Origin: an uncultured Clostridia bacterium
GTDB taxonomy: Bacteria > Bacillota > Clostridia > Christensenellales > UBA1242
Assembly: GCA_934793215.1 (NCBI GenBank)
Contig: CAKVOP010000001.1
Coordinates: forward strand, 66,280-130,279
Reading direction: 5' to 3'
DNA: 64,000 bases
Shown here: positions 2,912-48,738 of the stretch, one piece after another
Position numbering within the stretch: position 1 is the first letter of the stretch
Layout of the letters: each line of letters opens with the position of its first letter
Made by a program: the position numbers and the translations under genes
Notes under the pieces: generated by a model
Told to the model about the DNA's origin: nothing
Database searches by the model: none
Seen by the model: the letters and a program-made list of their open reading frames with translations, nothing else

Positions 2912-4354
2912 ATGCTAGTAAAAGAACTGCTTGATGGAGTGGACTATGAAGGCGAACTGGAAGAAATAGAAATAAAAGATATAAAAATAGATAGTCGCAC
3001 TATCGAAGAGGGGGATATTTTTATTGCACTGCATGGCAGGCAAGAAAGTGGTGAAAAGTTTATCAATGATGCATTAAAAAGAGGTGCTCGAATTGTTTTG
3101 AGTGAAGAAGAAAATAAAGATAAAAGAGTCATAAAAGTTGCCTCTACAAGGTCAGCGTATGCACTTGTTTGTAAAAACTTTTTTGACAAAGCGTGTGACA
3201 ATCTAAAGATCATTGCAATAACTGGCACAAACGGGAAAACCACCACCGCCACTATCACGAAAGAGGTGCTTGGTTACGCTGGATTAAGAACGGCGGTCAT
3301 AGGAACTCTGGGTGCGGGCGAAAAAGAGCTTCAAGATACTGGATTTACAACGCCAGACCCTTACGCGCTTCATAGAATTTTTAAGGAAATGTACTCGCAA
3401 GGTGTGGAATGCGTAGTTATGGAGGCATCGGCACATGCACTTGCACTTCATAAACTAGATGGAATAAAGTTTGAGATAGGGGTGCTTACGAATGTAACAG
3501 AAGATCATTTGGACTTCTTTGGGGATATGGGAACATACGCACAGGCAAAGTTTAAACTTTTTGAGCCTAACAAAATAAAACTTGGAATTGTTTGCTGTGA
3601 TGATATTTATGGTCGCAAACTTTTTGCAAATGCCAAAGTGCCTATGGTAAGTTATGGCCTGGGCGAGGGAAACGATATAACCGCTTTTGATATAGAAAAT
3701 AGAGGCTTGCAAACGCAATTTGTTTGCAAGGCACTTGGCAGGGAATTTAAAGTCACAAGTCCACTTATTGGAGATTATAATGTTGAAAATATGCTTGCTT
3801 GCGTCGGCAGTTGCATGGCAATGGGGGTTCCAATCGAATTGATTCGACTAGGATTGTCTTGTATAAATCAAGTTGAGGGGAGATTTAATGTTATAACCAT
3901 GGGTGGCGTAAAAATAGTAATCGATTTTGCACATACGCCTGATGGACTTGAAAAAGTTTTGTTGTCAGCAAGAAAACTTACGGGGGGACATCTAAAAGTT
4001 TTATTTGGTTGTGGTGGTGATAGAGACCGATTGAAGCGTCCTATCATGGGCAAGGTGGCCGAGGATTTTGCTGATGAGGTGTATTTAACAAGTGACAATC
4101 CGCGTTTCGAAAATCCGGAAGAAATTATGAAAGAGATAGCCTCTGGAATGAGCAAGCCTTGTAAAATGATTGCAAATCGTAAAGATGCAATTAGACAAAT
4201 TTTGTCTTCCGCTCAAATTGGAGATACGATAGTTTTGGCGGGTAAAGGTGGTGAAAAATATCAAGATATAAATGGTGAAAAATTGCCATATAATGATTTT
4301 GATGAGGTATATCTTTTTTATAGAAATAAAATAAAAGAAGTCGAAAACGAGTAA
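2912..4354 (+). CDS. murE: UDP-MurNAc-L-Ala-D-Glu--2,6-diaminopimelate ligase
   Basis: GITGTNGKTTT P-loop. The DNPR motif (LTSDNPRFE) indicates meso-DAP specificity. I chose the ATG at 2912 because it follows an AGGAGG RBS; the ORF track starts 15 nt earlier. Confidence 0.9.
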   Translation: MLVKELLDGVDYEGELEEIEIKDIKIDSRTIEEGDIFIALHGRQESGEKFINDALKRGARIVLSEEENKDKRVIKVASTRSAYALVCKNFFDKACDNLKIIAITGTNGKTTTATITKEVLGYAGLRTAVIGTLGAGEKELQDTGFTTPDPYALHRIFKEMYSQGVECVVMEASAHALALHKLDGIKFEIGVLTNVTEDHLDFFGDMGTYAQAKFKLFEPNKIKLGIVCCDDIYGRKLFANAKVPMVSYGLGEGNDITAFDIENRGLQTQFVCKALGREFKVTSPLIGDYNVENMLACVGSCMAMGVPIELIRLGLSCINQVEGRFNVITMGGVKIVIDFAHTPDGLEKVLLSARKLTGGHLKVLFGCGGDRDRLKRPIMGKVAEDFADEVYLTSDNPRFENPEEIMKEIASGMSKPCKMIANRKDAIRQILSSAQIGDTIVLAGKGGEKYQDINGEKLPYNDFDEVYLFYRNKIKEVENE

Positions 4355-4617
4355 AAATATTAATTTTAAAAATAAAATATAAAAAGAAAATTGTCGAGAG
4401 TCAATAATAAATAAAATTGTTTTTTCTAAAAAAATTATTTATAAAATGGCTAGAAGTGCCGAAAAATGGTGGAATCATAATTTCTGTCATTTTTTTATTA
4501 AATTTAAAATAGGTGTTTTTATTTTGATTTTTAAAAGACTTTTTTGTTTTTATTTTAAATGCTTATTTTGAAAGAATTTTATTTATTTGCAAAGAATAAA
4601 TTAAATGAGGAGAAATT

Positions 4618-5577
4618 ATGTTAAACTTATTTTTGACCTTTATTATTTCTTTGCTTCTAGCCCTAATTTTGGGTAAACCAATGTTAAGACTTTGTCACAA
4701 ACTTCATTTTTCGCAAACTATTCTTCATTATGTGGACAACCATGCTGGCAAAAGTGGAACGCCAACAATGGGTGGACTTATTTTTATTTTATCGTCTCTC
4801 ATTGGTTCGCTTATATTTATAAAAGGTGATGGTGGAATAAGTCTTATAATTTTGCTTGTCTTTTTTGCGTATGGGCTGTTAGGTTTTCTTGATGACATAA
4901 TTAAAGTACGCGGACACAAAAACGAAGGATTGAAGCCTTACCAAAAAATTATAGGACAAGTTGGTGTTGCTACAGTTATTGGTATTTTTGTTTATCTTAA
5001 AGTAGGTTCAACGCTAGACCTTTTCGGTTTAAAATTAAACATAGGCTTCTTTATAATTCCGTTTATAATTCTTTTTTATGTAGCGGTTACAAATTCAGTT
5101 AATCTTACAGATGGACTTGATGGACTCGCTGGCGGGACAAGCGTTATCTATCTTATCACATTTGCTGTCATTCTATATTTGCAGGGCTTCACAAATTTCT
5201 CAATAATTTCGCTCGCACTGGCTGGCTCGCTCGTGGGCTTTCTTTGCTTTAATTGTTTCCCAGCAAAAATCTTTATGGGTGATACAGGATCTCTTGCTAT
5301 TGGCGGGTTGATCGCATCGCTCGCGGTTTTTTCTGGGCTTGAACTTATTATGCCTATAATTGGAATCATGTTTGTAATGAGTGCGTTAAGCGACGTCTTA
5401 CAGGTTTTGCACTACAAGCGCACTAAAAAAAGAATTTTTAAAATGGCACCTTTGCACCACCATTTTGAACGCTGTGGCGTGCATGAAAATAGAATTGTAT
5501 TAGTATATATAGTTATAACGCTGCTTTGCGGATTAGCATCAATTCTGGGCTATCTGGCAGTGGGAGGAGTGATATAA
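4618..5577 (+). CDS. mraY: phospho-N-acetylmuramoyl-pentapeptide transferase
   Basis: Polytopic membrane protein with NLTDGLDGLA and MGDTGSLAIGG motifs; GAGGAG RBS. Confidence 0.95.
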   Translation: MLNLFLTFIISLLLALILGKPMLRLCHKLHFSQTILHYVDNHAGKSGTPTMGGLIFILSSLIGSLIFIKGDGGISLIILLVFFAYGLLGFLDDIIKVRGHKNEGLKPYQKIIGQVGVATVIGIFVYLKVGSTLDLFGLKLNIGFFIIPFIILFYVAVTNSVNLTDGLDGLAGGTSVIYLITFAVILYLQGFTNFSIISLALAGSLVGFLCFNCFPAKIFMGDTGSLAIGGLIASLAVFSGLELIMPIIGIMFVMSALSDVLQVLHYKRTKKRIFKMAPLHHHFERCGVHENRIVLVYIVITLLCGLASILGYLAVGGVI

Positions 5578-5581
5578 CTTT

Positions 5582-6886
5582 ATGAAATTGAAGGGCAAAA
5601 ATGTTTTAGTATATGGACTTGGAATTAGCGGTCAATCGGCGTGCAAATTATTGCATGAAAAGGGTGCATGCGTGAGCATATATGATGATGAAAGGCGTTT
5701 TTCCAACGTTTACTCTTTTTGTCCAGAACCAAAACTTAAAAAATTTGATCTTGTTGTGTTAAGCCCTGGCATTAAAAGGCTAGGTAATGACCTTGTCGCG
5801 TATTTTGAAGCAATGAAAACGCCAATAATAAGCGAACTAGACCTTGGCTATATATTTTGCAAAGGTAAAGTTATAGGGATAACTGGCACAAATGGAAAGA
5901 CAACTGTAACTTCTCTTGTAGGAGAAATTTTCAAATCTGCTGGTAAGAAGACTTTTGTTTGTGGGAATATAGGCTTGCCTATTACAAACATAGCAATGAA
6001 GACAGATAGAAAAAGTTTTGTCGTGTGTGAAGTCAGCAATTTTCAATTAGAGAGTTCGCAGATTTTTAAGCCAGATGAAGCGACCATATTAAATCTTGCC
6101 CCTGACCACCTTGATAGGCATGGTAGTTATCAAGAATATATACGCGTGAAGCGCAAGATTTTATCTGCAAAAAGACAGAAGGTTGTACTTAATTTTGACG
6201 ATGAAGGCTCAAAAATGAGTAAAATAGATAAAAAAGTGATGTTTTTTTCCAAACTTCCACTTGAAAAAGGCGTTTTTGTGAAAAATAATGCCATTTATCA
6301 TAACAAAACAAAAATCATTTCACTGAATGATATTCCACTTTTCGGCGAAAAAAATCTTGAAAATGTTCTGGCATCTGTGGCACTTGCGGTGGGCTACAAA
6401 GTCAAACTGCAAATAATCAAAAAAGCAATAATTAATTTTGTTGCACCATCACACAGACTTGAATATATTGGCATGGTGAATGGGGCACAGGTTTTTGATG
6501 ACTCCAAGGCAACCAATATTTCGGCAACTATTGGTGCGATTGAATCTCTTGGAGATAACGGACTGGTTTTGATGCTGGGAGGACTCAACAAAGGGTTTTT
6601 GTTTGACGAAATTTTTAATAAAGGTTATTTATTTGATAATTTGTTGTGCTTTGGTGAGGCAGGCGAAGAAATTGCGGATTGCGCAAATAAATACGGATAT
6701 GTTTCTAATATATTCAAAAGTATGAAAGATGCGACCCTTTATGCCAAACAGAATGCTTTAAGTGGTCAAAAAATTCTTCTTGCCCCTGCATGTGCAAGTT
6801 TTGACGAATTTTCGTCTTATGCTGTAAGAGGGGAAGTATTTAAGGAGATTATTACGGGTGAATATGAAAAAAACGAGCGGGGTTAA
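5582..6886 (+). CDS. murD: UDP-N-acetylmuramoylalanine--D-glutamate ligase
   Basis: N-terminal Rossmann motif VYGLGISGQS; GITGTNGKTT P-loop; dcw position after mraY. Confidence 0.9.
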   Translation: MKLKGKNVLVYGLGISGQSACKLLHEKGACVSIYDDERRFSNVYSFCPEPKLKKFDLVVLSPGIKRLGNDLVAYFEAMKTPIISELDLGYIFCKGKVIGITGTNGKTTVTSLVGEIFKSAGKKTFVCGNIGLPITNIAMKTDRKSFVVCEVSNFQLESSQIFKPDEATILNLAPDHLDRHGSYQEYIRVKRKILSAKRQKVVLNFDDEGSKMSKIDKKVMFFSKLPLEKGVFVKNNAIYHNKTKIISLNDIPLFGEKNLENVLASVALAVGYKVKLQIIKKAIINFVAPSHRLEYIGMVNGAQVFDDSKATNISATIGAIESLGDNGLVLMLGGLNKGFLFDEIFNKGYLFDNLLCFGEAGEEIADCANKYGYVSNIFKSMKDATLYAKQNALSGQKILLAPACASFDEFSSYAVRGEVFKEIITGEYEKNERG

Positions 6887-29802: not shown

Positions 29803-30546
29803 TTATCTTTCTGGTTCTTCATCTTCAAGGTCGGTAGGCTCGCCATTTTCTGGTTTCGCACCACAAGCAATGAGCAGTGTTATGATATCTTTTTGCTGAT
29901 AATACTCGGCGATATCGAGTGCACTTTTTCCTTCGTTATTTCTAACATTTATATCAGCACCATGATCTATAAGCAATCTACAAGTATCTTTTTTGCCTGC
30001 TGATGCTGCTTTCATTAATGGTGTGCTTCCATTTTCATTGACAGCATTAACATCAGCGCCGTTTTCAATGAGTAGCCTGCAAACGCTTGTGTGTCCAGTC
30101 AATGCACCAACCATCAATGCAGTGCATTTATCTGCATCTACCGCATTTACAAGTGCACCATTTTGAATAAGAAGTTTGCAAACCTCTATTTGACCAGTCC
30201 ATGTGGCTTCCATAAGTGGGGAACACCCCATTAGGCCGACAGCATTAACATCAGCACCATGATTGATTAAAAATCGGCAAATCTCTGTTTGCCCTTTTAA
30301 CGCTAAACGCATAAGTAGCGTGTAGCCGAACTTGTCATTTGAATTAACATTTGCGCCATTTTCAATTAAAAGCTCGCAGATTGCCATTTGTCCTTTTGTA
30401 ACTGCAATCATTAAAGCGGTGCATTCATTTTTATCAATAGCATTTACATCGGCTCCGTCTTTTAAAAGCTTTTGAATCTTTATAATGTTTCCTTCCTTGC
30501 ATGCACTCAAGAACTTTTCATCTAACAGTAATTTTTTGTTTTTCAT
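29803..30546 (-). CDS. ankyrin repeat protein (about 7 ANK repeats, acidic C-terminus)
   Basis: Repeated G.T.LM.A...G....C.LLI..GA.VN units through the whole protein. No signal peptide seen. Confidence 0.9.
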   Translation of the reverse strand: MKNKKLLLDEKFLSACKEGNIIKIQKLLKDGADVNAIDKNECTALMIAVTKGQMAICELLIENGANVNSNDKFGYTLLMRLALKGQTEICRFLINHGADVNAVGLMGCSPLMEATWTGQIEVCKLLIQNGALVNAVDADKCTALMVGALTGHTSVCRLLIENGADVNAVNENGSTPLMKAASAGKKDTCRLLIDHGADINVRNNEGKSALDIAEYYQQKDIITLLIACGAKPENGEPTDLEDEEPER

Positions 30547-38128: not shown

Positions 38129-38434
38129 TTAAATGCAGTCCCTGCTTATACTTGATGACAACAAATATCCAGCAAGGAAGAAAAGTGTTGACTTTGGAAA
38201 TGAAAATTGTACGCAGTCACATTTTCTTTCATGTTCTGGGCAACAGCCTCCGCAAGGAGGATATGGCTGTGGACAAGGCGGAAATTGTGGAGGGTAAGGA
38301 ATGTTCCAAGGTGGAATAGATGTGCAAGGGGACAAGCAAGGAGAAGTACAATGGGGAATGCATGGATTCTGTCCGCAACAATAGTTAGGACGCAAAGACA
38401 CGCATTTGCCCATACGATAAGGACAAGTTTTCAT
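38129..38434 (-). CDS. small Cys/Pro-rich protein (candidate spore coat/exosporium component)
   Basis: AAAGGAG RBS and its own terminator. 101 aa with 15 Cys and many Pro (CIPHCTSPCLSPCTS, PPCPQPYPPCGGCCP). Confidence 0.6.
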   Translation of the reverse strand: MKTCPYRMGKCVSLRPNYCCGQNPCIPHCTSPCLSPCTSIPPWNIPYPPQFPPCPQPYPPCGGCCPEHERKCDCVQFSFPKSTLFFLAGYLLSSSISRDCI

Positions 38435-40979: not shown

Positions 40980-41113
40980 TGTTTGACCTCTACAATATCA
41001 GTCTAGCAAAAGGCGGAGGTGATTGTGACAACTTTTCAAAATTTTTGGCAGTAAAGGTGGAAAAGCGTGAAGTGGCAAGGGTATAATGTTGCCAAACTCA
41101 AAAAGGGGAACAG

Positions 41114-41404
41114 ATGGAAGAGGAGGACATGATAAAAAAAGCCTTGCTTAAAAAGGCACTAGGCTATGATGCAGACGATGTTGTAAAAGAGTACACAGGC
41201 GGTGAAGATGGTGACATTGTGCTAGCCAAAAAGAAAGTCACCACAAAGCATTATGCACCTGACGTGTCAGCGGTAAAACTGCTTCTTGACAGATACTATA
41301 AAACTTATAAAGAAATCGTGGACGAAATGACAGATGAAGCCCTGGAAGAGGAAAAGAATAGACTTGAAAAACTTATTAAGGAGGAAGAAGATGGAACTTC
41401 ATGA
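41114..41404 (+). CDS. small-terminase core-like protein lacking an N-terminal HTH
   Basis: KKALGYDADDVVKEY..GEDGDIVLAKKKVTTKHYAPDVSAVKLLLDRY resembles, from memory, the oligomerisation core of SPP1 G1P-type TerS (IALGQEKEQV...THVEVSAKDRIKALELLGK). An in-frame stop lies 8 codons upstream. Confidence 0.4.
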   Translation: MEEEDMIKKALLKKALGYDADDVVKEYTGGEDGDIVLAKKKVTTKHYAPDVSAVKLLLDRYYKTYKEIVDEMTDEALEEEKNRLEKLIKEEEDGTS

Positions 41405-41627
41405 GTGTAATCATTTTTGCAAATGCGACTTTAATGGCTGTAATAACAGAGCAAAGTATACTTTCTCATGTGGTGGGAACATCAGGCGTGATCTTTGCTT
41501 TTGTGAAGAATGTTTGAAGGGAATGTATAACGAAATATCCAAAATGTTCGTGCCAAAAGCGATCAAAAGTCCATTTAAGATAAATCAAAGATTAAGGAGA
41601 GAAGATGAAAGAAGAAAAGATTGTTAA
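41391..41627 (+). CDS. Cys-rich (zinc-ribbon-like) small protein
   Basis: AAGGAGG RBS. MELHECNHFCKCDFNGCNN...CGG...CFCEECLKG followed by a basic tail. Overlaps both neighbouring genes. Confidence 0.55.
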   Translation: MELHECNHFCKCDFNGCNNRAKYTFSCGGNIRRDLCFCEECLKGMYNEISKMFVPKAIKSPFKINQRLRREDERRKDC

Positions 41628-43446
41628 AGAAGTCCTTGACGACTTTAAGAAACGCGCCGAAGAGCGCAAAAGTTTTGACCTCATTTGGCAGATAAACTCT
41701 AACTTTTTAATGGGTAACCAGTACTGTAATGTGGGTTACGGTGGTGAACTCGAAGAGCAAGACCGTCAGTTTTTTTGGCAAGAGAGGGAAGTTTTCAACC
41801 ATATCGCACCAATTTATGACATAAGATTTGCAAAACTATCAAAAGTCAAACCAAACATAAACATCTTGCCTGCGACAAACGAAGAAAAGGACAAGCAAAT
41901 TGCCAAAATTTCAAAGAAAATTTATCAATCTGTGAAAAACAAACTTGAAATAAATGAAAAAGTGAACCAAGCAATAAAATGGAGTGAGGTTTGTGGAACA
42001 GTGTTTTATAAAGTGGGTTGGAACTCAAATATTGGGCAGGTTGTAGGAATTGGTGAAAACGACAAAAAAATCACCTCGGGTGAGGTCGAACTCAGTGTGG
42101 TAAGCCCATTTGAAATTTATCCAGATTCCGCCACTTGTGAAAGTCTTGATGAGTGCCAGAGCATAATTCACGCCAAGGCGTATAAGACCAGTCAAATTAA
42201 ATCAATGTATGGCATCGATGTGAAAGGGCAAGACGTAAATGTGTTCTCGCTTGACGGAGTCAGTGGGTCTGTTGGAGGTCTTGGGTTTAATGGAGCGATG
42301 CCCAAAATTATACAAACCCGCAAAACAGATTCAGCGGTTGTGGTTGAAAGATATGTTCGACCTTGTGCTGAATATCCTAATGGGCGTCTTACCATAGTCG
42401 CTGGCGACAGGCTTGCTTTCGATGGAGATTTGCCATATATGATTAAAGATGACAAGGAGCGGGACTTCCCATTTATTAGACAAACCAGTATCGAGGAGCC
42501 GGGCTGCTTTTGGGGAACTAGTGTAATTGAACGCCTTATTCCTGTGCAAAGAGCCTACAACGCGGTTAAAAATCGCAAACATGAATTTATTAATCGTATT
42601 TCTATGGGAGTACTTTCTGTTGAAGATGGTTCCGTCGACCTTGACAATTTAGAACAAGAGGGGCTATGCCCGGGGAAAGTCTTGGTTTATAGACAGGGGG
42701 CAAAAGAGCCTCAATATCTTCAAAGTGAGGCGATAAGTGGCGAACTTGCAAAGGAAGAAGATGCACTTTTAGAGGAGTTTAACAAAATTAGCGGAGTTAG
42801 TGATATTTTGGGATCGAGCGGAGTTTCAGCAAATATGAGCGGAGTTACGCTTGAGCTCATGATCTCGCAAGACGAAACACGACTTAATGCCTCTGTTGAA
42901 GCAATCAAGATTGCGATGCGTGAAATTGCCAAAAAGATTTTAAAACTTTATAGACAATTTGCGGTTTTCCCACGCCTTGCAAGAATAGTGGGTGAAAATG
43001 GAGATGTGGAAATATTTTATTTCTCGTCAAGTGATATAACAAGCGATGACATAATTGTGGACGATTACGCAGACACCAATCAAACGCTTTCTCAACGAAG
43101 AGAAATGATTTTTAACTTGCTTGAAAATGGAATTTTGACTGACGAGAAAGGAAATCTTACAAACAAAATGAAAACAAAAGTAATGGAGATGCTAGGAATT
43201 GGTGCATGGGAAAGTGCTCAAGACATAAATGAGCTTCACATTAAAAAGGCGGATAAAGAAAACTTCAAACTGCTTGACGGTATTAATTTAAAGCCTAGTG
43301 AAATTGATGACCATGAACTTCACATAAATGAGCATGTGGCTTTTATGCTGGGTGAAGATTTTGAAAAGAAAAAAGCTAAAAATCCAAAAATAGAACAAAT
43401 TTTTTTAGAGCATGTTAAGGCTCACAAGATGATGAAGGAGGAATAA
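41605..43446 (+). CDS. phage portal-like protein
   Basis: 613 aa. N-terminal W..N.NFL.GNQY motif typical of portal families. It sits ahead of the scaffold- and capsid-like genes. AAGGAG RBS. Confidence 0.6.
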   Translation: MKEEKIVKEVLDDFKKRAEERKSFDLIWQINSNFLMGNQYCNVGYGGELEEQDRQFFWQEREVFNHIAPIYDIRFAKLSKVKPNINILPATNEEKDKQIAKISKKIYQSVKNKLEINEKVNQAIKWSEVCGTVFYKVGWNSNIGQVVGIGENDKKITSGEVELSVVSPFEIYPDSATCESLDECQSIIHAKAYKTSQIKSMYGIDVKGQDVNVFSLDGVSGSVGGLGFNGAMPKIIQTRKTDSAVVVERYVRPCAEYPNGRLTIVAGDRLAFDGDLPYMIKDDKERDFPFIRQTSIEEPGCFWGTSVIERLIPVQRAYNAVKNRKHEFINRISMGVLSVEDGSVDLDNLEQEGLCPGKVLVYRQGAKEPQYLQSEAISGELAKEEDALLEEFNKISGVSDILGSSGVSANMSGVTLELMISQDETRLNASVEAIKIAMREIAKKILKLYRQFAVFPRLARIVGENGDVEIFYFSSSDITSDDIIVDDYADTNQTLSQRREMIFNLLENGILTDEKGNLTNKMKTKVMEMLGIGAWESAQDINELHIKKADKENFKLLDGINLKPSEIDDHELHINEHVAFMLGEDFEKKKAKNPKIEQIFLEHVKAHKMMKEE

Positions 43447-44052
43447 ATGGAAGACAGAGAACAACCGACAATGGAACCAGCAAATGTTTTAAACGCAACG
43501 GAGGAAGAAAGTGCTGTGAGTGAGGTCGGCTCTCGCGAAAAAGCAGACCTTGGGAAATTTAAAAGCGTAGAGGATCTTATGGACGCATACAACTCTCTAC
43601 AAAGTGAGTTTACAAGGAAATGCCAACAGCTTAGTCAAACGCTTAAAGATAAAACTGAAATTGAAGTGCCAAAAGAAAGGGAAACCTTTGACGAAGGTAA
43701 GTTTAATGAGTTCCTTGAAGAAAATGACAAGGCCAAAAACTATGCTGATGAGATAAAAAATCTTGTCACACAACAGGGCTCTGCCTCTTATGAGGACGCT
43801 TGGGGCAGAGCTCTTTTAAATCGTATTAAAAGCGACGAGAACTCTTCAAGCGACCCTCTTATTAATCAGTATGTTTTATCTAACGAAGAATTAAAAAACA
43901 AAGTTATCGAAGATTATCTTGAAAGGCTAAAAGGGACAAGCGCCCCTTATGTTATGGCTTCTTCTGGTGGTGAGAGACTTTCAAGCGTAAGCGAGCAAAG
44001 CCCCACCACGCTTGAAGAGGCAAAAGTCCTTACAAGAAAAATGTTTGAATAA
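43447..44052 (+). CDS. scaffolding-like protein (acidic, helical)
   Basis: 201 aa, Glu/Lys-rich with a coiled-coil character. Abuts the portal stop and lies between the portal and capsid genes. Confidence 0.5.
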   Translation: MEDREQPTMEPANVLNATEEESAVSEVGSREKADLGKFKSVEDLMDAYNSLQSEFTRKCQQLSQTLKDKTEIEVPKERETFDEGKFNEFLEENDKAKNYADEIKNLVTQQGSASYEDAWGRALLNRIKSDENSSSDPLINQYVLSNEELKNKVIEDYLERLKGTSAPYVMASSGGERLSSVSEQSPTTLEEAKVLTRKMFE

Positions 44053-44132
44053 TTAGTTTTTTCGACAAAATTTTCGTTAAAAAACATCAAAAAACATGTA
44101 AAAACTATAAAAACGAAGAAAAAGGAGAAAAA

Positions 44133-45356
44133 ATGGTTACTTTACAAACAGCAGATAATGCTTTAAAAAATGTTTATCTTGGAGTTGTTGCAAACCAACT
44201 CAACGTTAAAGCAAACCCACTTCTTGCAAAAATCAAACGCACAAGCAAAGATGTGTGGGGAAAAGAAATTAGAAAACTTGCACCATTTGGAATTAATGGT
44301 GGTGTAGGGGCAGGTGGCGAAACTGACGCTCTTCCAGATGCTTCTGGCAATGGGTATGTTCAATTCGTCAGTGAGCTTAAAAACCTTTATGGTAAAATTG
44401 AGATTTCTGACAAAGCAGTTAGAGCAAGCCAAAATAATATAGGTGCTTTTGTCAATCTATTAACTGATGAAATGGAAGGTCTTGTTAAGGCAAGTGCTTT
44501 CAACCTTGGAAGAATGTTGTACGGAGATGGAACTGGTCTTCTTGCAACAGTTTCTGCCGTTTCAAACAAAACACTTACTTGCGACAAAGTAAACAATCTC
44601 ATTGAAGGAATGCTTGTTGACGTATATTCAACTAGTGGAAAACTTAACACTACTCCACTAAAAATCACTTATGTAGACAGAGTAAATAAAAAGTTTACAT
44701 ACACTGGTACTACAAGCACAATATCTCAAAACTGCAAAGTTTATGTTCAAGGTTCAAAAGATAAAGAAATTTCTGGGCTTGGAAAGATCTTTGATTCAAG
44801 TGCTACTTCTATTTATGGAGTTAGCAAATCGGATAATCCTTGGCTTACTCCATATGTAAGCACAACTGAACAAGAGATTTCTGATATTGTTATCCAACAA
44901 GCGATTGACTTCCTTGATATGAATGTTGACAGCCAAATCAACTTCATTTCTTGTTCAAGCCAAGTTAGACGTGCATATCAAGAATATCTTGGTGCGTATA
45001 GAAGAAATATTGATATCGCAGTTCTTGACGGTGGATACAAAACAATTACTCACAATGGTATTCCTGTTGTTGCAGATAGATTTGTTGATAATGATACAAT
45101 GTATCTTCTTAACACAAATGATTTTACTCTTCATGAACTTTGCGACTGGCAATGGCTCCAAGGTGAGGACGGCAGAATTTTGAAACAAAAAGAAGGCTAT
45201 CCAACATACTCTGCAACCCTTGTTAAATACGCTGAACTTATCTGTGATAAGCCATGCGGACAAGCAAAAATTTCAGGTATTAAGTCAACAGTGACAAATC
45301 CTTTTGCTACAAACTTGACAGTAAATAATAATACTACAACTACACCAACTGAATAA
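44133..45356 (+). CDS. major capsid-like protein
   Basis: 407 aa with a strong AAAGGAG RBS and the expected position after the scaffold gene. Contains a spine-helix-like segment (LTDEMEGLVKASAFNLGRMLYGDGTG). The fold was not verified. Confidence 0.55.
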   Translation: MVTLQTADNALKNVYLGVVANQLNVKANPLLAKIKRTSKDVWGKEIRKLAPFGINGGVGAGGETDALPDASGNGYVQFVSELKNLYGKIEISDKAVRASQNNIGAFVNLLTDEMEGLVKASAFNLGRMLYGDGTGLLATVSAVSNKTLTCDKVNNLIEGMLVDVYSTSGKLNTTPLKITYVDRVNKKFTYTGTTSTISQNCKVYVQGSKDKEISGLGKIFDSSATSIYGVSKSDNPWLTPYVSTTEQEISDIVIQQAIDFLDMNVDSQINFISCSSQVRRAYQEYLGAYRRNIDIAVLDGGYKTITHNGIPVVADRFVDNDTMYLLNTNDFTLHELCDWQWLQGEDGRILKQKEGYPTYSATLVKYAELICDKPCGQAKISGIKSTVTNPFATNLTVNNNTTTTPTE

Positions 45357-45487
45357 TTAAAAATTTATAAGGGCAAAAACTCTTTTTAAGGTAAAATCTT
45401 AAGACTTATTTTAATATTTCAATTATAGGTTTTGATTTTAGCAAAATAGATTTTTTGCCTTTTTAATAAATTTTGGAGGCAAAAATC

Positions 45488-45799
45488 ATGAAAAATCTTT
45501 TAATTATTGAAGGTGACACCTTTTTTATAAATGAAAGACTTAAAGAGATTGACAGAGATTACTATGTTGTTTTCAATCTTGAAAAACAAAAATACGAAGT
45601 TCATGTACATGGACAGGCAGGTAATAGTTATGCTTTTACATTACCCTTTGATAGCCTTGACGAGCGAGCACTTTTGTTTGCTCAAAAAACTCGCATAGAA
45701 AATATGGATAAAATTTTAGAAGAGATTGAAAGAGATAACGAGCAGTCTTATGAACGCCTCATAAAACAGCAGATGAATTTATTGAAGGAGATAATATGA
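45488..45799 (+). CDS. hypothetical protein in the head module
   Basis: GGAGG RBS at 45475-45479. 103 aa. Stop overlaps the next start. Confidence 0.5.
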   Translation: MKNLLIIEGDTFFINERLKEIDRDYYVVFNLEKQKYEVHVHGQAGNSYAFTLPFDSLDERALLFAQKTRIENMDKILEEIERDNEQSYERLIKQQMNLLKEII

Positions 45800-46350
45800 A
45801 AGTAAAAGATATAATCATTTTAGCACTAGATTTTTGTCACGAAGACAGTCTTGCATCACTTTTGAGAACTCAAGAACCAAGTTTGACTGACGAACAGCAA
45901 GAAAAAGTAAACGCTATGACAAGGTGTTTCAACCTTGTTTATGAAGAATTGTCAAGTCAATATCTTCCAATAATCAAAACCGAAACTGTAAGTACTAGTG
46001 ATGGGAAAGTGCTCTTTTCAAGTTTGTCTCAAAAAGTTTTAGATATTGTGGAGGTAAAAAATTCTCATGGCAGAAGAATTAAATTTAGAAAGTTTGATTC
46101 TTACCTTTTTGCCCTTGCTAGCGAAGTGACAGTGTCATATAAAACCATTCCAGCCACGCTTACCGATTCTGGAGAATTTTCTTGCCCATTGCCAGAAAGA
46201 ATTTTTGCGTATGGTGTTGCTAGAGAGTTTTTCTATTTGCTTGGTGCGAGTGACGAGGCTGAAATTTATGATAATCGCTTTAAAGACAGCCTTCTTGTTT
46301 TGCTTGGTAAGTCAAAAGAGATAGTAATGCCCGCGAGGGGGTGGATTTAA
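45796..46350 (+). CDS. hypothetical structural protein (candidate head-tail adaptor/head completion)
   Basis: 184 aa with an AAGGAG RBS. The call rests on position and size only. Confidence 0.4.
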   Translation: MKVKDIIILALDFCHEDSLASLLRTQEPSLTDEQQEKVNAMTRCFNLVYEELSSQYLPIIKTETVSTSDGKVLFSSLSQKVLDIVEVKNSHGRRIKFRKFDSYLFALASEVTVSYKTIPATLTDSGEFSCPLPERIFAYGVAREFFYLLGASDEAEIYDNRFKDSLLVLLGKSKEIVMPARGWI

Positions 46351-47831
46351 TGATATATTTAAATAAGCACACCCCCGCCAAAGCAAAGACAAAAGAGGTT
46401 TCAATATCTTTTGCACAAAAGGATACTTTGGCAGAAGACCTAAAAGAGGGAAAGGGGGAACTTGTATACAACATCACAATCAACAAGGGTGCTTTGAGAA
46501 GTGGCCTTGGATTTGAAAATCTTGCTTCTGCCGTGGATACAGTCAATATAGACACCGAGGTGACATTGCCACTCCGCGGAAATCAAGTCAAGGCAATAAA
46601 TCAACTTTGTTGGCATGACGAAACTGATGATATTACGTCATATTACATTTTTTATTACAATAATGAAGGCTTGATTTGCTATGATGGACTTTATGAGGAG
46701 CGTCTCATTCCAAGCACTATACAAAATAATTTCACAGATATTCCTATTACGTTTCCTTATAAAACTAATGGCGTAGAATGCTTGGTTTTTTCTGGGAAAG
46801 GGACAACAGTGCTTATAGGAAGCGGTGGAAGTAGAACGCTCGAAAAGGTTCCGGGCATGCTTTCGTGCGTAAGTCATTATGGAATGTTTTTTGGAATTAA
46901 AATTCATACTCCGCCAAAGCTTATTTATTCACCAGTGACTGATCTCACAAAATGGGACGACACACTGGTTAAAAACCTTGACTTTACTGATGCAAGGGGA
47001 GAACTTACAAGGCTTGTTTCGTTTAATGACTATGTCTACATATTTAGAAATTATGGGATAACTCAACTTTCTAAATATTCTCAAGATGAAGAATTTTCAA
47101 TTAGTCATATGTATCAAGCCTGCTCTTATATAAATCCAAACACAATTTGCCAGTTTAAAGACGCAGTCTATTTTGTTGAAGATTGCACGCTTAAAGCATT
47201 TAATGGCAATAGCGTAAAGGATATAGAAGTTAAAAACTTTAAATATATGAAAGGTGTCACCAACACTGCACTATTTGGAACATGTTATAAAGGCAAATAT
47301 TACCTCGCGTGTAGATGCGATTTTGGTGATAACGAAGTTGTTGGTTGTGAGGGATATTCTGCAGGATATACAAATAATGCACTCATTTCTTACGACCTTA
47401 CTACTGGCGAAGAAGAGGTCTTACGAGGAGTGGATATAAATCAAATTATGAATTTTGTCACCCCTTTTAAGAGTAAACTTTTAGCATGCTTTAGAAATCA
47501 GCATATTGATAAAATAGGGCAACTTACTTCTAACGGAAAAATTTTTGGTCAATCCCTAAAAAGCAAGTTTGAGAGTACCTATACTGATTTTGGCACAAAA
47601 AGCGCCCGTAAAACGCTTACAAAAATCACTTATAAATGCAGTGGGAAAGTTGCATGTAAGATTATTTGTGATGGACAGGAAAAAACTTTCACACTTGACG
47701 GAAATGGTGTTATGAAAACAAAAAGATTGTCTTTGACTGGGAGAGAGTTTAAGTTTATCTTGACTGGAAACCTTGCACCAATAAATCTTGATGACTTTGT
47801 TGTGACGGCTAAAATTCGCGATGAAAATTGA
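46350..47831 (+). CDS. large beta-rich structural protein (candidate nozzle/tail stub or receptor-binding protein)
   Basis: TAATG stop/start coupling at 46348-46352. 493 aa rich in Gly/Asn/Tyr/Thr, suggesting beta repeats. No family recognised. Confidence 0.45.
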   Translation: MIYLNKHTPAKAKTKEVSISFAQKDTLAEDLKEGKGELVYNITINKGALRSGLGFENLASAVDTVNIDTEVTLPLRGNQVKAINQLCWHDETDDITSYYIFYYNNEGLICYDGLYEERLIPSTIQNNFTDIPITFPYKTNGVECLVFSGKGTTVLIGSGGSRTLEKVPGMLSCVSHYGMFFGIKIHTPPKLIYSPVTDLTKWDDTLVKNLDFTDARGELTRLVSFNDYVYIFRNYGITQLSKYSQDEEFSISHMYQACSYINPNTICQFKDAVYFVEDCTLKAFNGNSVKDIEVKNFKYMKGVTNTALFGTCYKGKYYLACRCDFGDNEVVGCEGYSAGYTNNALISYDLTTGEEEVLRGVDINQIMNFVTPFKSKLLACFRNQHIDKIGQLTSNGKIFGQSLKSKFESTYTDFGTKSARKTLTKITYKCSGKVACKIICDGQEKTFTLDGNGVMKTKRLSLTGREFKFILTGNLAPINLDDFVVTAKIRDEN

Positions 47832-47920
47832 AGTTAGATATTTCGTCCGTTTAGTAAGAGCGAGAGAAAAAGAAAGACTTTTTCATAAGTTTGAATCGTT
47901 CTTGCCAAAAGGAGAAATAA

Positions 47921-48148
47921 ATGGATTTTTGGAATGAACTTGTAAAGATCGTCATAAGTAATGGTGTTTTTGCGACACTCTTTGTTTTCTTGTTTTTCTA
48001 TCAACTTAAAGATTCAACACGCAGGGAAAAGGAGTATCGCACTACGATAGACAACCTTATGAAACATCTTAAAATTATTGACGAGGTGCGAGCGGAAGTA
48101 AGTGACCTAAAAGATTTAGTTTTGGAGAAACAAAATGAAAAGGTTTAA
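47921..48148 (+). CDS. BhlA/UviB family holin-like peptide
   Basis: NGVFATLFVFLFFYQLKDSTRREKEY parallels the remembered BhlA sequence QGPFAVLFCWLLFYVMKTSKERESKLY. One TM helix plus a charged helical tail. Confidence 0.7.
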   Translation: MDFWNELVKIVISNGVFATLFVFLFFYQLKDSTRREKEYRTTIDNLMKHLKIIDEVRAEVSDLKDLVLEKQNEKV

Positions 48149-48449
48149 AAATTATGGATTTTGGACTGCGCTTTCTGGTGCTCTCGTGCTGTTTCTTAAA
48201 ACACTAGGTGAAGCCTTTGGGTTTTCAATCCACCAAGAAACGGTTTCAAATCTTGTTATGGCACTAGCCGAACTTCTTGTTGTTTTTGGAATTGTTGTAA
48301 TGCCAAGAAACAAAGAGGATAGTTCGTCAACAGAAGAAAAAGGTGACGATGCTATCGGCACTGATGACAAACAAGAAGATAAAGAAAAAGTGGAAGAAAA
48401 AGAAGAAACTCAAGGCAAAAAGCCTGATGACGAGAAAGATAAAGAGTAG
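48135..48449 (+). CDS. phage holin (phiLC3 / Phage_holin_1-like) with a long acidic C-terminal tail
   Basis: MKRFKNYGFWTALSGALVLFLK...FG matches the KN..FW.AL.SA..L motif of this holin family. Overlaps the bhlA-like gene by 14 nt. Confidence 0.65.
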   Translation: MKRFKNYGFWTALSGALVLFLKTLGEAFGFSIHQETVSNLVMALAELLVVFGIVVMPRNKEDSSSTEEKGDDAIGTDDKQEDKEKVEEKEETQGKKPDDEKDKE

Positions 48450-48463
48450 TCTTTTCACAACTT

Positions 48464-48496
48464 AAAAAAGTCGGCACTTTAAATGCCGACTTTTTT
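48464..48496 (+). terminator. strong Rho-independent terminator closing the island
   Basis: AAAAAA-GTCGGCA-CTTTAAA-TGCCGAC-TTTTTT. Confidence 0.85.
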
Positions 48497-48738
48497 GTTT
48501 AAATGAGTTATGATTTAAAAATATAAATTTGTGCCACTCGTGCTCCTCAAATAATCCTCTCTTTTTTCACAGCGAAGCAAGCATATGTTTTTGATTTGCG
48601 TTTCAAATTCTAGATGAAAACTTGTTTTAAATTGCTTTTTTATGATAATTTAGATAAAAACGCCATAATTTTCTAAAAAAACTTGAAAATAATGTCATAT
48701 TTCTTTAATTATTTAACCAAATTTGTTAAAATAGCCAT

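Follow-up and report, generated by a model that had tools for sequence, protein, structure and literature searches.

A conserved, lysin-less pair of overlapping holin-like genes closes a podovirus-like capsid operon in gut Clostridia chromosomes

Pairing of a holin with an endolysin is a near-rule for lysis by tailed phages and gene transfer agents (GTAs); the conserved operon described here keeps two holin genes and no linked lysin. It lies in a 64-kb window of an uncultured Clostridia bacterium (the whole stretch of DNA that was analysed, with positions counted from its first letter), in which two overlapping open reading frames (ORFs), at 47921–48148 (75 aa) and 48135–48449 (104 aa), form the 3′ end of a 7.3-kb, 10-gene, podovirus-like, same-strand operon (41114–48449; referred to below as the island). 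The explanation that we favour, with a probability of roughly 0.55, is that the two products constitute a functional, translationally coupled two-component holin that times the lytic release of a domesticated particle, the wall hydrolase being supplied in trans. The particle, GTA-like on this reading, would be podovirus-like in its predicted parts (portal, scaffold, capsid, nozzle). Cassettes with two holins are already known, as are orphan holins. What is new is, on the one hand, the lysin-less pairing of a BhlA protein with a Phage_holin_1 protein as a conserved module of a large podovirus-like operon family of gut Clostridia, fixed in their chromosomes and apparently undescribed, and, on the other, the reduced form of the operon in the clade of the window, which is without a gene for the large terminase subunit (TerL) and without the DUF7934 gene that follows the nozzle gene in fuller islands.

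The product of the first gene (bhlA; 47921–48148, + strand) is assigned to the BhlA/UviB/TpeE family of holin-like proteins: it matches Pfam Holin_BhlA (PF10960; E = 2.4e-14, 53.5 bits against a cut-off of 22.6) and phrog_2429 (2e-10), the PHROGs label of BhlA families being 'bacteriocin production or immunity'. Hydropathy, the sole basis of the transmembrane domain (TMD) topology given here for both proteins, predicts a single N-terminal TMD at approximately residues 6–28, followed by KDSTRREKEYR and a charged, helix-prone C-terminus. Taken with the alignment, this fits the layout of the BhlA family (TCDB 1.E.27; about 70–90 aa, one N-terminal TMD and a charged amphipathic C-terminal helix), and the orthologues in two related islands (L020 and L021) likewise match PF10960. 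The product of the second gene (48135–48449, + strand; 104 aa with a 47-aa acidic tail) gives a marginal match to Phage_holin_1 (PF04531; E = 1.3e-4, 22.9 bits against a cut-off of 22.0), a match to phrog_297 ('holin'; 3e-11) and a match to TIGR01598 (holin_phiLC3; 4.5e-7) that, at 30.0 bits, stays below the equivalog cut-off of 39.7; it is 41–43% identical to Staphylococcus phage holins over residues 1–65. Two hydrophobic segments (approximately residues 9–32 and 35–59) behind a basic N-terminus (+3) are predicted, the layout of a class II holin. By these matches it is phiLC3-like, that is, related to the phiLC3 holin and not an equivalog of it. A first-pass annotation of this DNA had named a BhlA/UviB-type peptide and a class-II-like, phiLC3-like holin, and both identifications were confirmed, the second with the marginal Pfam match as a reservation. 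Both proteins are unremarkable as members, or near-members, of holin families that were already known. Neither had a match in PADLOC, and PDB sequence searches with profiles of BhlA, of the nozzle protein and of the product of another island gene (g7) were uninformative.

The two genes overlap by 14 nt (48135–48148), and each start codon is preceded by a GGAG ribosome-binding site, at 47911–47914 for bhlA and at 48124–48127 for the holin gene. This arrangement recurs in related islands: the junction is an overlap of 4–35 nt in 23 of the 28 non-redundant pairs, and a purine-rich site of Shine–Dalgarno type (GGAG/GAGG-like) stands before nearly every holin start, inside the 3′ end of bhlA wherever the genes overlap. 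Measured against the closest relative, dN/dS amounts to 0.010 in bhlA and to 0.06 over residues 2–58 of the holin, so the two are not chance ORFs; these two values are comparable to those of the flanking genes abc (0.026) and holA (0.031), and the holin tail is at 0.38. The exact BhlA sequence was found on 49 contigs.

The C-terminal tail of the holin (45–47 aa; 20 acidic and 11 basic residues in the 47-aa count, net charge −9 to −10) had been considered unusually long in the first-pass annotation. This view was not sustained: the holin of Staphylococcus phage StB20, which belongs to the same Pfam family and has the same layout, carries a tail of 72 aa with a net charge of −13, and in distant islands its length varies between about 20 aa (L016, L068) and about 250 aa (L057, L061), the sequence there being always acidic and of low complexity. 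Among close relatives the acidity is kept (net charge −5 to −11) and the sequence is not. Because related islands and StB20 have acidic tails too, the tail is a family trait and no peculiarity of this locus. The largest orthologues observed, of 255 and 315 aa (L057:3750–4517 and L061:13884–14831), owe their size to tails grown to 200–250 N/Q/E/D-rich, acidic, low-complexity residues. The possibility that the long ORFs of L057, L061 and L078 were holin–lysin fusions was rejected, as their extensions consist of such tails only; an enzyme domain was never found in the holin tails of related islands.

The pair is tied to the capsid genes by a chain of overlapping reading frames. The stop codon of the nozzle gene (46350–47831) overlaps a small bridging ORF of 38 aa (47821–47937, + strand; MKIEVRYFVRLVRAREKERLF...), which is present in all members of the clade and overlaps the start codon of bhlA, and bhlA overlaps the holin gene. 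This chain leaves no space between the nozzle and holin genes in which a terminator or an additional promoter could lie; a promoter in the spacer between nozzle and bhlA was considered and rejected, as the conserved small ORF fills that spacer. No convincing terminator was found within 41114–48449, the sole plus-strand terminator-like site being a weak match inside the nozzle gene. The operon ends in an intrinsic terminator (48463–48497, + strand) with a 14-bp stem followed by a U-run (ΔG = −17.6 kcal/mol, z = −6.8; no shuffled sequence folds as well), which was missed by a simple consensus scan. Rfam returned only sub-threshold terminator-like matches. Since the ORFs are chained and no convincing terminator intervenes, co-transcription of the holin pair with the capsid genes is strongly suggested. 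The 14-nt overlap, the terminator directly behind the pair and the attachment of the pair to the capsid genes, through ORFs that overlap or abut, were thus all recovered as first described. The 38-aa ORF is similar to the N-terminal extensions that DUF7934 genes have in fuller islands, and is probably a retained stub of a deleted DUF7934 gene.

No gene of the 64-kb window carries a peptidoglycan hydrolase domain, on either strand, and four phage lysin seeds compared with the six-frame translation of the window gave no match; the same seeds, used as a positive control, detected lysins in three other loci (L007, L008 and L150). Gene annotation and seed searches therefore agree with the first-pass statement that no lysin is present, within the limits of the window. 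The possibility that the protein of the nozzle gene is a hidden lysin was also considered and was rejected, as its structural model matches podovirus tail nozzles.

Relatives of the island were collected with an alignment-based scan for the capsid protein, which yielded 80 metagenomic and 53 IMG/VR loci with capsid identities of 36–84%; a single-sequence capsid scan of IMG/VR had given no match, and for BhlA the alignment varied too much to serve in a viral scan. The loci were annotated with hidden Markov models built from the island proteins. In fuller islands the order begins with a sigma-like regulator of RinA/ArpU/ECF type, a gene on the opposite strand for a secreted, anchored protein with two SH3b domains, TerL, g1 and g2, and continues with portal, scaffold, capsid, g6, g7, nozzle, sometimes a protein of about 400 aa, DUF7934, BhlA and holin. 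The content of holin genes could be counted in 53 non-redundant loci with at least 2.5 kb of sequence past the nozzle gene: 29 have both, the holin alone was detected in 8 and BhlA alone in 3, and 13 show neither. TerL is within reach in 32 of 55 informative loci and absent within at least 2.5 kb in the other 23, which include the clade of the window. It lies directly upstream of g1 in many relatives and 3–6 kb away in L040 to L048. These gaps between TerL and g1, among them one occupied by a gene for pyruvate, phosphate dikinase (ppdK, in L040), show that the island cluster does become fragmented and can be split by host genes.

Across this family no lysin was encountered either. A Pfam tally of 135 non-redundant ORFs located up to 5 kb downstream of the nozzle gene contained no hydrolase family with two or more members, searches of all ORFs of the loci with the lysin seeds found none inside any of about 50 islands, and Pfam and PHROG scans of the unassigned island genes returned no lysin. 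The same result was obtained for apparently complete islands, which run from regulator and TerL through to the holin (L020, L068, L075, L090 and L131). The SH3b protein encoded upstream of TerL was considered as the missing lysin and rejected: it is secreted and C-terminally anchored, has two SH3b domains and no catalytic domain, and is not encoded in the window. Phage and prophage cassettes are differently composed. The order is BhlA, a 269-aa lysin and holin in a Paenibacillus senegalensis prophage, uviB, cwlA and holin in phage HB10c2, and BhlA, endolysin and holin in phage CPAS-15; in StB20 the holin is followed by a CHAP endolysin. The pair of the window occupies the distal end of a late structural operon, after the nozzle gene and before the terminator, with no endolysin adjacent to it or between its genes. 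In a phage-like IMG/VR relative of the island family (L150), which comes from a contig of 30 kb and has strong PHROG structural matches, the genes immediately upstream of TerL (4878–6174) encode a 93-aa protein with one TMD, an Amidase_2/SPOR endolysin (phrog_1794, 9e-43) and a 106-aa protein with two TMDs and an acidic tail. Plausibly, the ancestral lysis cassette looked like this while it still contained a lysin. In the simplest history suggested by these comparisons, a lysin lay sandwiched between the holin genes of the phage ancestor and disappeared early in the domesticated lineage; the lysin-less state, which is family-wide, would then be derived.

The same 10-gene island is situated between the same ABC transporter gene and comEC in relatives from other assemblies (L003–L006 and L016–L019), and it is kept at this site even where the ComEC proteins are only 35–37% identical; the capsid proteins there are 82–84% identical. 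The capsid is thus conserved more than the flanking housekeeping genes (in L016, 82% for the capsid against 78% for the ABC ATPase, 64% for HolA and 37% for ComEC), and across relatives the divergence of island genes tracks that of the flanks. The GC content of the island (0.370) is close to that of its flanks (0.364), and dN/dS against the closest relative is 0.008 for the portal and 0.033 for the capsid. Database homologues of the capsid number more than 6,244; the 120 best of them show identities of at least 77–78%, on contigs of up to 368 kb. A capsid search of INPHARED (GenBank phages) gave identities of 24–28% only, the matches being actinophages and two uncultured Caudoviricetes records. 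The island has the traits expected of a domesticated viriform, in that it is chromosomal, vertically inherited, devoid of integrase, replication and lysogeny genes, and has dN/dS values far below 1; the large terminase, a trait of GTAs, was not found in the window. Given the shared site in diverged hosts, the GC content equal to that of the flanks and the dN/dS values far below 1, the island is domesticated, vertically inherited and under strong purifying selection, and no decaying prophage.

The mode of action that we propose for the pair is as follows. The one-TMD BhlA-type protein and the two-TMD Phage_holin_1 holin, as products of the last cistrons of a late-type operon, would both accumulate in the membrane while particles are assembled; they would then trigger, collapse the proton motive force (PMF) and permeabilise the membrane. 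A peptidoglycan hydrolase unlinked to the operon would cut the wall, upon which the cell would lyse and the particles be released. The hydrolase could be supplied by host autolysins deregulated through PMF collapse or by a dedicated lysin encoded elsewhere in the genome. What the data show are the gene identities, the layout of the operon, its conservation, purifying selection and vertical inheritance, and the lack of a cis-encoded lysin across the family; that the pair acts as a holin and sets the timing, and where the hydrolase comes from, we infer. Holin and bactericidal activities have been demonstrated for BhlA proteins, including that of Bacillus (PMC9527704). In PBSX, SPP1 and Ms6, two holin-like proteins work together as a single functional unit, PMF collapse activates several Gram-positive autolysins, and LytA assists the release of phage SV1 after the holin has fired (PMC6116005). 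Assembled capsids should be unable to cross intact peptidoglycan, and release would therefore have to be lytic. Between the two possible sources the balance tilts slightly towards host enzymes, because a cis-encoded lysin is missing even from otherwise complete islands. Several points weigh against this scheme. Holin function and particle release are predictions from sequence, and the source of the hydrolase was sought within the 64-kb window. The Pfam tally lists only families with at least two members, so a singleton or a hydrolase of novel fold could escape it. The match to Phage_holin_1 barely exceeds the Pfam cut-off and that to TIGR01598 does not reach its own. The pair is not universal, since the 13 of 53 islands with neither holin, mostly of higher GC or more distant, do without it, and the clade of the window is without the TerL, DUF7934 and ~400-aa genes of fuller islands, so that the contents of its particle, and even its release, are putative.

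Four other readings were weighed against the coupled two-component holin with a hydrolase in trans. In the one nearest to it, lysis would be of the canonical holin–endolysin kind, with a dedicated endolysin at another locus that is co-regulated with the island, as in multi-locus GTAs; only the genomic linkage would then be unusual, not the mechanism, and this reading overlaps with the favoured one, which leaves the source of the hydrolase open. We regard it as possible though somewhat doubtful. The lysis genes of RcGTA are likewise unlinked to its head–tail cluster. A precedent in gut bacteria is the podovirus-like GTA of Faecalibacterium (FpGTA), whose holin and endolysin are encoded 125 kb away from the head genes, in an operon of their own (PMC12946183), and the fragmentation documented above for the island family (TerL displaced by 3–6 kb in L040–L048 and, in 23 of 55 loci, missing over at least 2.5 kb) points the same way. 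Because of FpGTA and of the separable TerL in relatives, a lysin missing in cis does not prove independence from a lysin. However, none of the approximately 50 islands, complete ones included, keeps a lysin in cis, where simple relocation should have left intermediates, and no second copy of the conserved promoter block of the operon was found in the 64-kb window. Another proposal is that the island family of Christensenellales-type gut Clostridia dropped its endolysin early and that lysis is self-sufficient without one: the coupled pair would collapse the membrane potential and either unleash host autolysins or exploit the lysis of the mother cell during sporulation. This we put forward tentatively, at odds clearly below even; if it is true, particle release would be under host control. 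In the clade of the window, where the operon has been pared down further (neither TerL nor DUF7934), the conservation of the capsid above housekeeping genes would, on this reading, hint at a role apart from classical DNA transfer.

A further reading, which we consider improbable, takes the pair out of the service of the capsid genes altogether and makes it a non-lytic export or permeabilisation channel like TpeE, TcdE or UviB, or a membrane-damaging module of toxin, bacteriocin or programmed-death type. The first-pass annotation had leaned on a clostridial precedent for export without a lysin, and this precedent holds in part: TpeE, of the BhlA family, exports TpeL without a linked lysin, and TpeE and TcdE are the only ones argued to export toxins without lysis, but UviB is always associated with an amidase (PMC9527704). 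The lack of a linked lysin here, the PHROGs label quoted above and the finding that BhlA and even its TMD alone are bactericidal (PMC9527704) could be read in favour of such a role. Against it, no toxin or bacteriocin gene was found in or beside the island and no TcdR/UviA-type sigma factor gene adjoins it in the window; moreover, the holin genes form a translational chain with the nozzle gene and invariably accompany structural genes. The non-canonical release of the products of the capsid genes that had been suggested is implausible as non-lytic export, for want of a toxin or bacteriocin cargo and because assembled capsids would be stopped by intact peptidoglycan, and a stand-alone membrane-damaging or defence module finds no support in PADLOC. 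Finally, the two genes might be no more than inert relics of a prophage lysis cassette which decayed and chanced to lose its lysin. The island is indeed without integrase, replication genes, TerL, the DUF7934 gene behind the nozzle and a lysin, and the small ORF at 47821–47937 resembles a deletion remnant. This reading was rejected as very improbable on the selection data (dN/dS values of 0.01–0.06); intact frames, an overlap and ribosome-binding site kept across relatives whose ComEC proteins are 35–37% identical, the exact BhlA sequence on 49 contigs and a capsid more conserved than the flanking housekeeping genes also speak against it.

The remaining genes of the operon, all on the + strand, are consistent with a podovirus-like head and short tail. 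The first, g1 (41114–41404, 96 aa), occurs in all related islands and weakly resembles small terminase subunits in their C-terminal part (phrog_309, E = 1.3e-5), and g2 (41391–41627), supported by ORF and gene call and kept in most islands, encodes a 78-aa Cys-rich, zinc-ribbon-like protein. They are followed by a portal protein of P22/SU10-like type (41605–43446; PF16510 6.7e-18, phrog_156 1e-35), a putative scaffolding protein of 201 aa (43447–44052), named by its position in the portal–capsid interval of every island and lacking a family match, and the major capsid protein (44133–45356; phrog_14242 1.4e-51, dN/dS 0.03–0.15). Two further genes are conserved in position: g6 (45488–45799) encodes a 103-aa protein with no Pfam, PHROG or NCBIfam match, and g7 (45796–46350) a 184-aa protein that, by position and size, is a candidate head-to-tail adaptor and gave no family or PDB sequence match. 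The 493-aa product of the nozzle gene was modelled with AlphaFold2 (pLDDT 87.4) as a beta-propeller; the top Foldseek match in the PDB was the Pa223 tail (9nwi_Y, E = 1.3e-17), followed by VP1, GP4, SU10, Pam1 and the T7 gp12 nozzle. In fuller islands the products of the DUF7934 and ~400-aa genes are, by position only, candidate tail appendages. Upstream of g1, a consensus scan found a promoter-like site of sigma-A type (TGGAAA-18-TATAAT, 41058–41087, + strand), which stands in a block conserved in the intergenic alignment of the clade and may function as the promoter of the operon; the palindrome TTGTGACAA (41023–41031) precedes it. The TTGACCTCTACAATATCAGTCTAG block (40983–41006, + strand) adjoins the start codon of the ABC transporter gene, is nearly invariant in the clade and has no Rfam match; it could be an operator or leader of the divergent transporter operon.

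The whole window is core chromosome. Upstream of the island are the genes from murE to ftsZ (dcw cluster), spoIIGA-sigE-sigG, feoB, the hrcA-grpE-dnaK-dnaJ operon, rsmE and the ABC transporter; downstream are comEC, holA, der, plsY, spoIVA, pcrA, ligA, rpsL, rpsG and fusA. The unannotated ORFs of the window that were checked comprised one ankyrin-repeat protein and proteins without a family match, and two window proteins whose genes have non-ATG starts had no exact match on look-up. The ankyrin-repeat protein (29803–30546, − strand; 247 aa) lies among core genes and has multiple NCBIfam ankyrin-type matches and no precomputed Pfam match. An ORF of 101 aa (38129–38434, − strand), Cys/Pro-rich with CxxC and PP repeats and without a family match, may be a spore-coat-like protein or spurious.

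Relatives of the island show some further features. Two genes directly upstream of TerL were observed at L020:1933–3234, in L041, L045, L068, L075 and L090 and in many IMG/VR loci: that of the sigma-like regulator (about 185 aa, with weak ECF/RinA/ArpU matches) and, on the opposite strand, that of the secreted protein of about 245 aa, which has two SH3b-like domains and is anchored in the membrane by its C-terminus. Both genes are present in nearly every TerL-containing relative examined that has enough upstream sequence, and neither is in the window. In L040 the ppdK gene occupies 3247–5940, between TerL and g1. Some distant relatives (L140, L141 and L145; for example, L141:6163–8436) contain two adjacent capsid-family ORFs in tandem, which may represent a duplication of the capsid gene. 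Most of the IMG/VR 'viral contigs' with this capsid (loci L102–L154) are pieces of 5–16 kb that contain the island gene set only; they are probably host-fixed elements misfiled as viruses, and their recognition matters for the annotation of viromes. A single capsid of this family carries an annotation to Candidatus Borkfalkia, from a metagenome-assembled genome of Christensenellaceae. As this is the sole taxonomically named relative found, the idea that the relatives are the FpGTA of Faecalibacterium was rejected.

GTA-like packaging has been reported in Christensenellaceae without an assigned locus (PMC12946183). The island family may underlie it and is thus a candidate for the genes behind the DNA packaging of GTA type that was recently observed in Christensenellaceae and in further gut Clostridia. 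The operon would also offer a natural test system for two questions, namely, whether holin-triggered PMF collapse together with host autolysins is enough to release particles from a Gram-positive cell, and how domestication rewires the control of lysis.

Among known systems, the toxin or bacteriocin loci TpeE–TpeL, TcdE–TcdA/B and UviB–Bcn5 share a protein family with the window, as TpeE and UviB belong to the BhlA family and TpeE acts without an adjacent canonical lysin. They differ in that they flank a large signal-less toxin gene and a TcdR/UviA sigma factor gene, with an amidase always accompanying UviB, none of which is found here; the sigma-like regulators upstream of TerL in relatives resemble ECF/RinA/ArpU types. 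FpGTA (PMC12946183), compared by its description, is alike in being a chromosomal, conserved head operon of about 10 genes in gut Clostridia (TerS-like, portal, scaffold, capsid and short-tail proteins) with its parts spread over more than one locus. Its operon I contains TerL and no holins, and its holin and endolysin are encoded with fibre and receptor-binding protein genes in operon II, whereas here the holin genes are in the head operon and neither endolysin nor TerL is in view. In the cassettes of HB10c2 (Paenibacillus), CPAS-15 (Clostridium perfringens) and the P. senegalensis prophage, a one-TMD BhlA-family protein and a two-TMD holin are likewise encoded at the end of a late structural operon, after tail genes and preceded by a small ORF; there, an amidase or endolysin gene separates the two membrane protein genes, whereas here they overlap directly without a lysin, a state conserved family-wide. 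The two-component holin systems of Bacillus phages, defective or temperate, namely those of PBSX (XhlA/XhlB–XlyA), SPP1 (gp24.1/gp26) and SPbeta (BhlA/BhlB–BlyA), all have a linked amidase, unlike the island, and XhlA is assigned to another Pfam family; the phage search revealed no homology to the proteins of SPbeta and PBSX. They nevertheless share with the island two small co-encoded membrane proteins, proposed to form a single holin unit (PMC6116005), and PBSX is, likewise, a domesticated particle.

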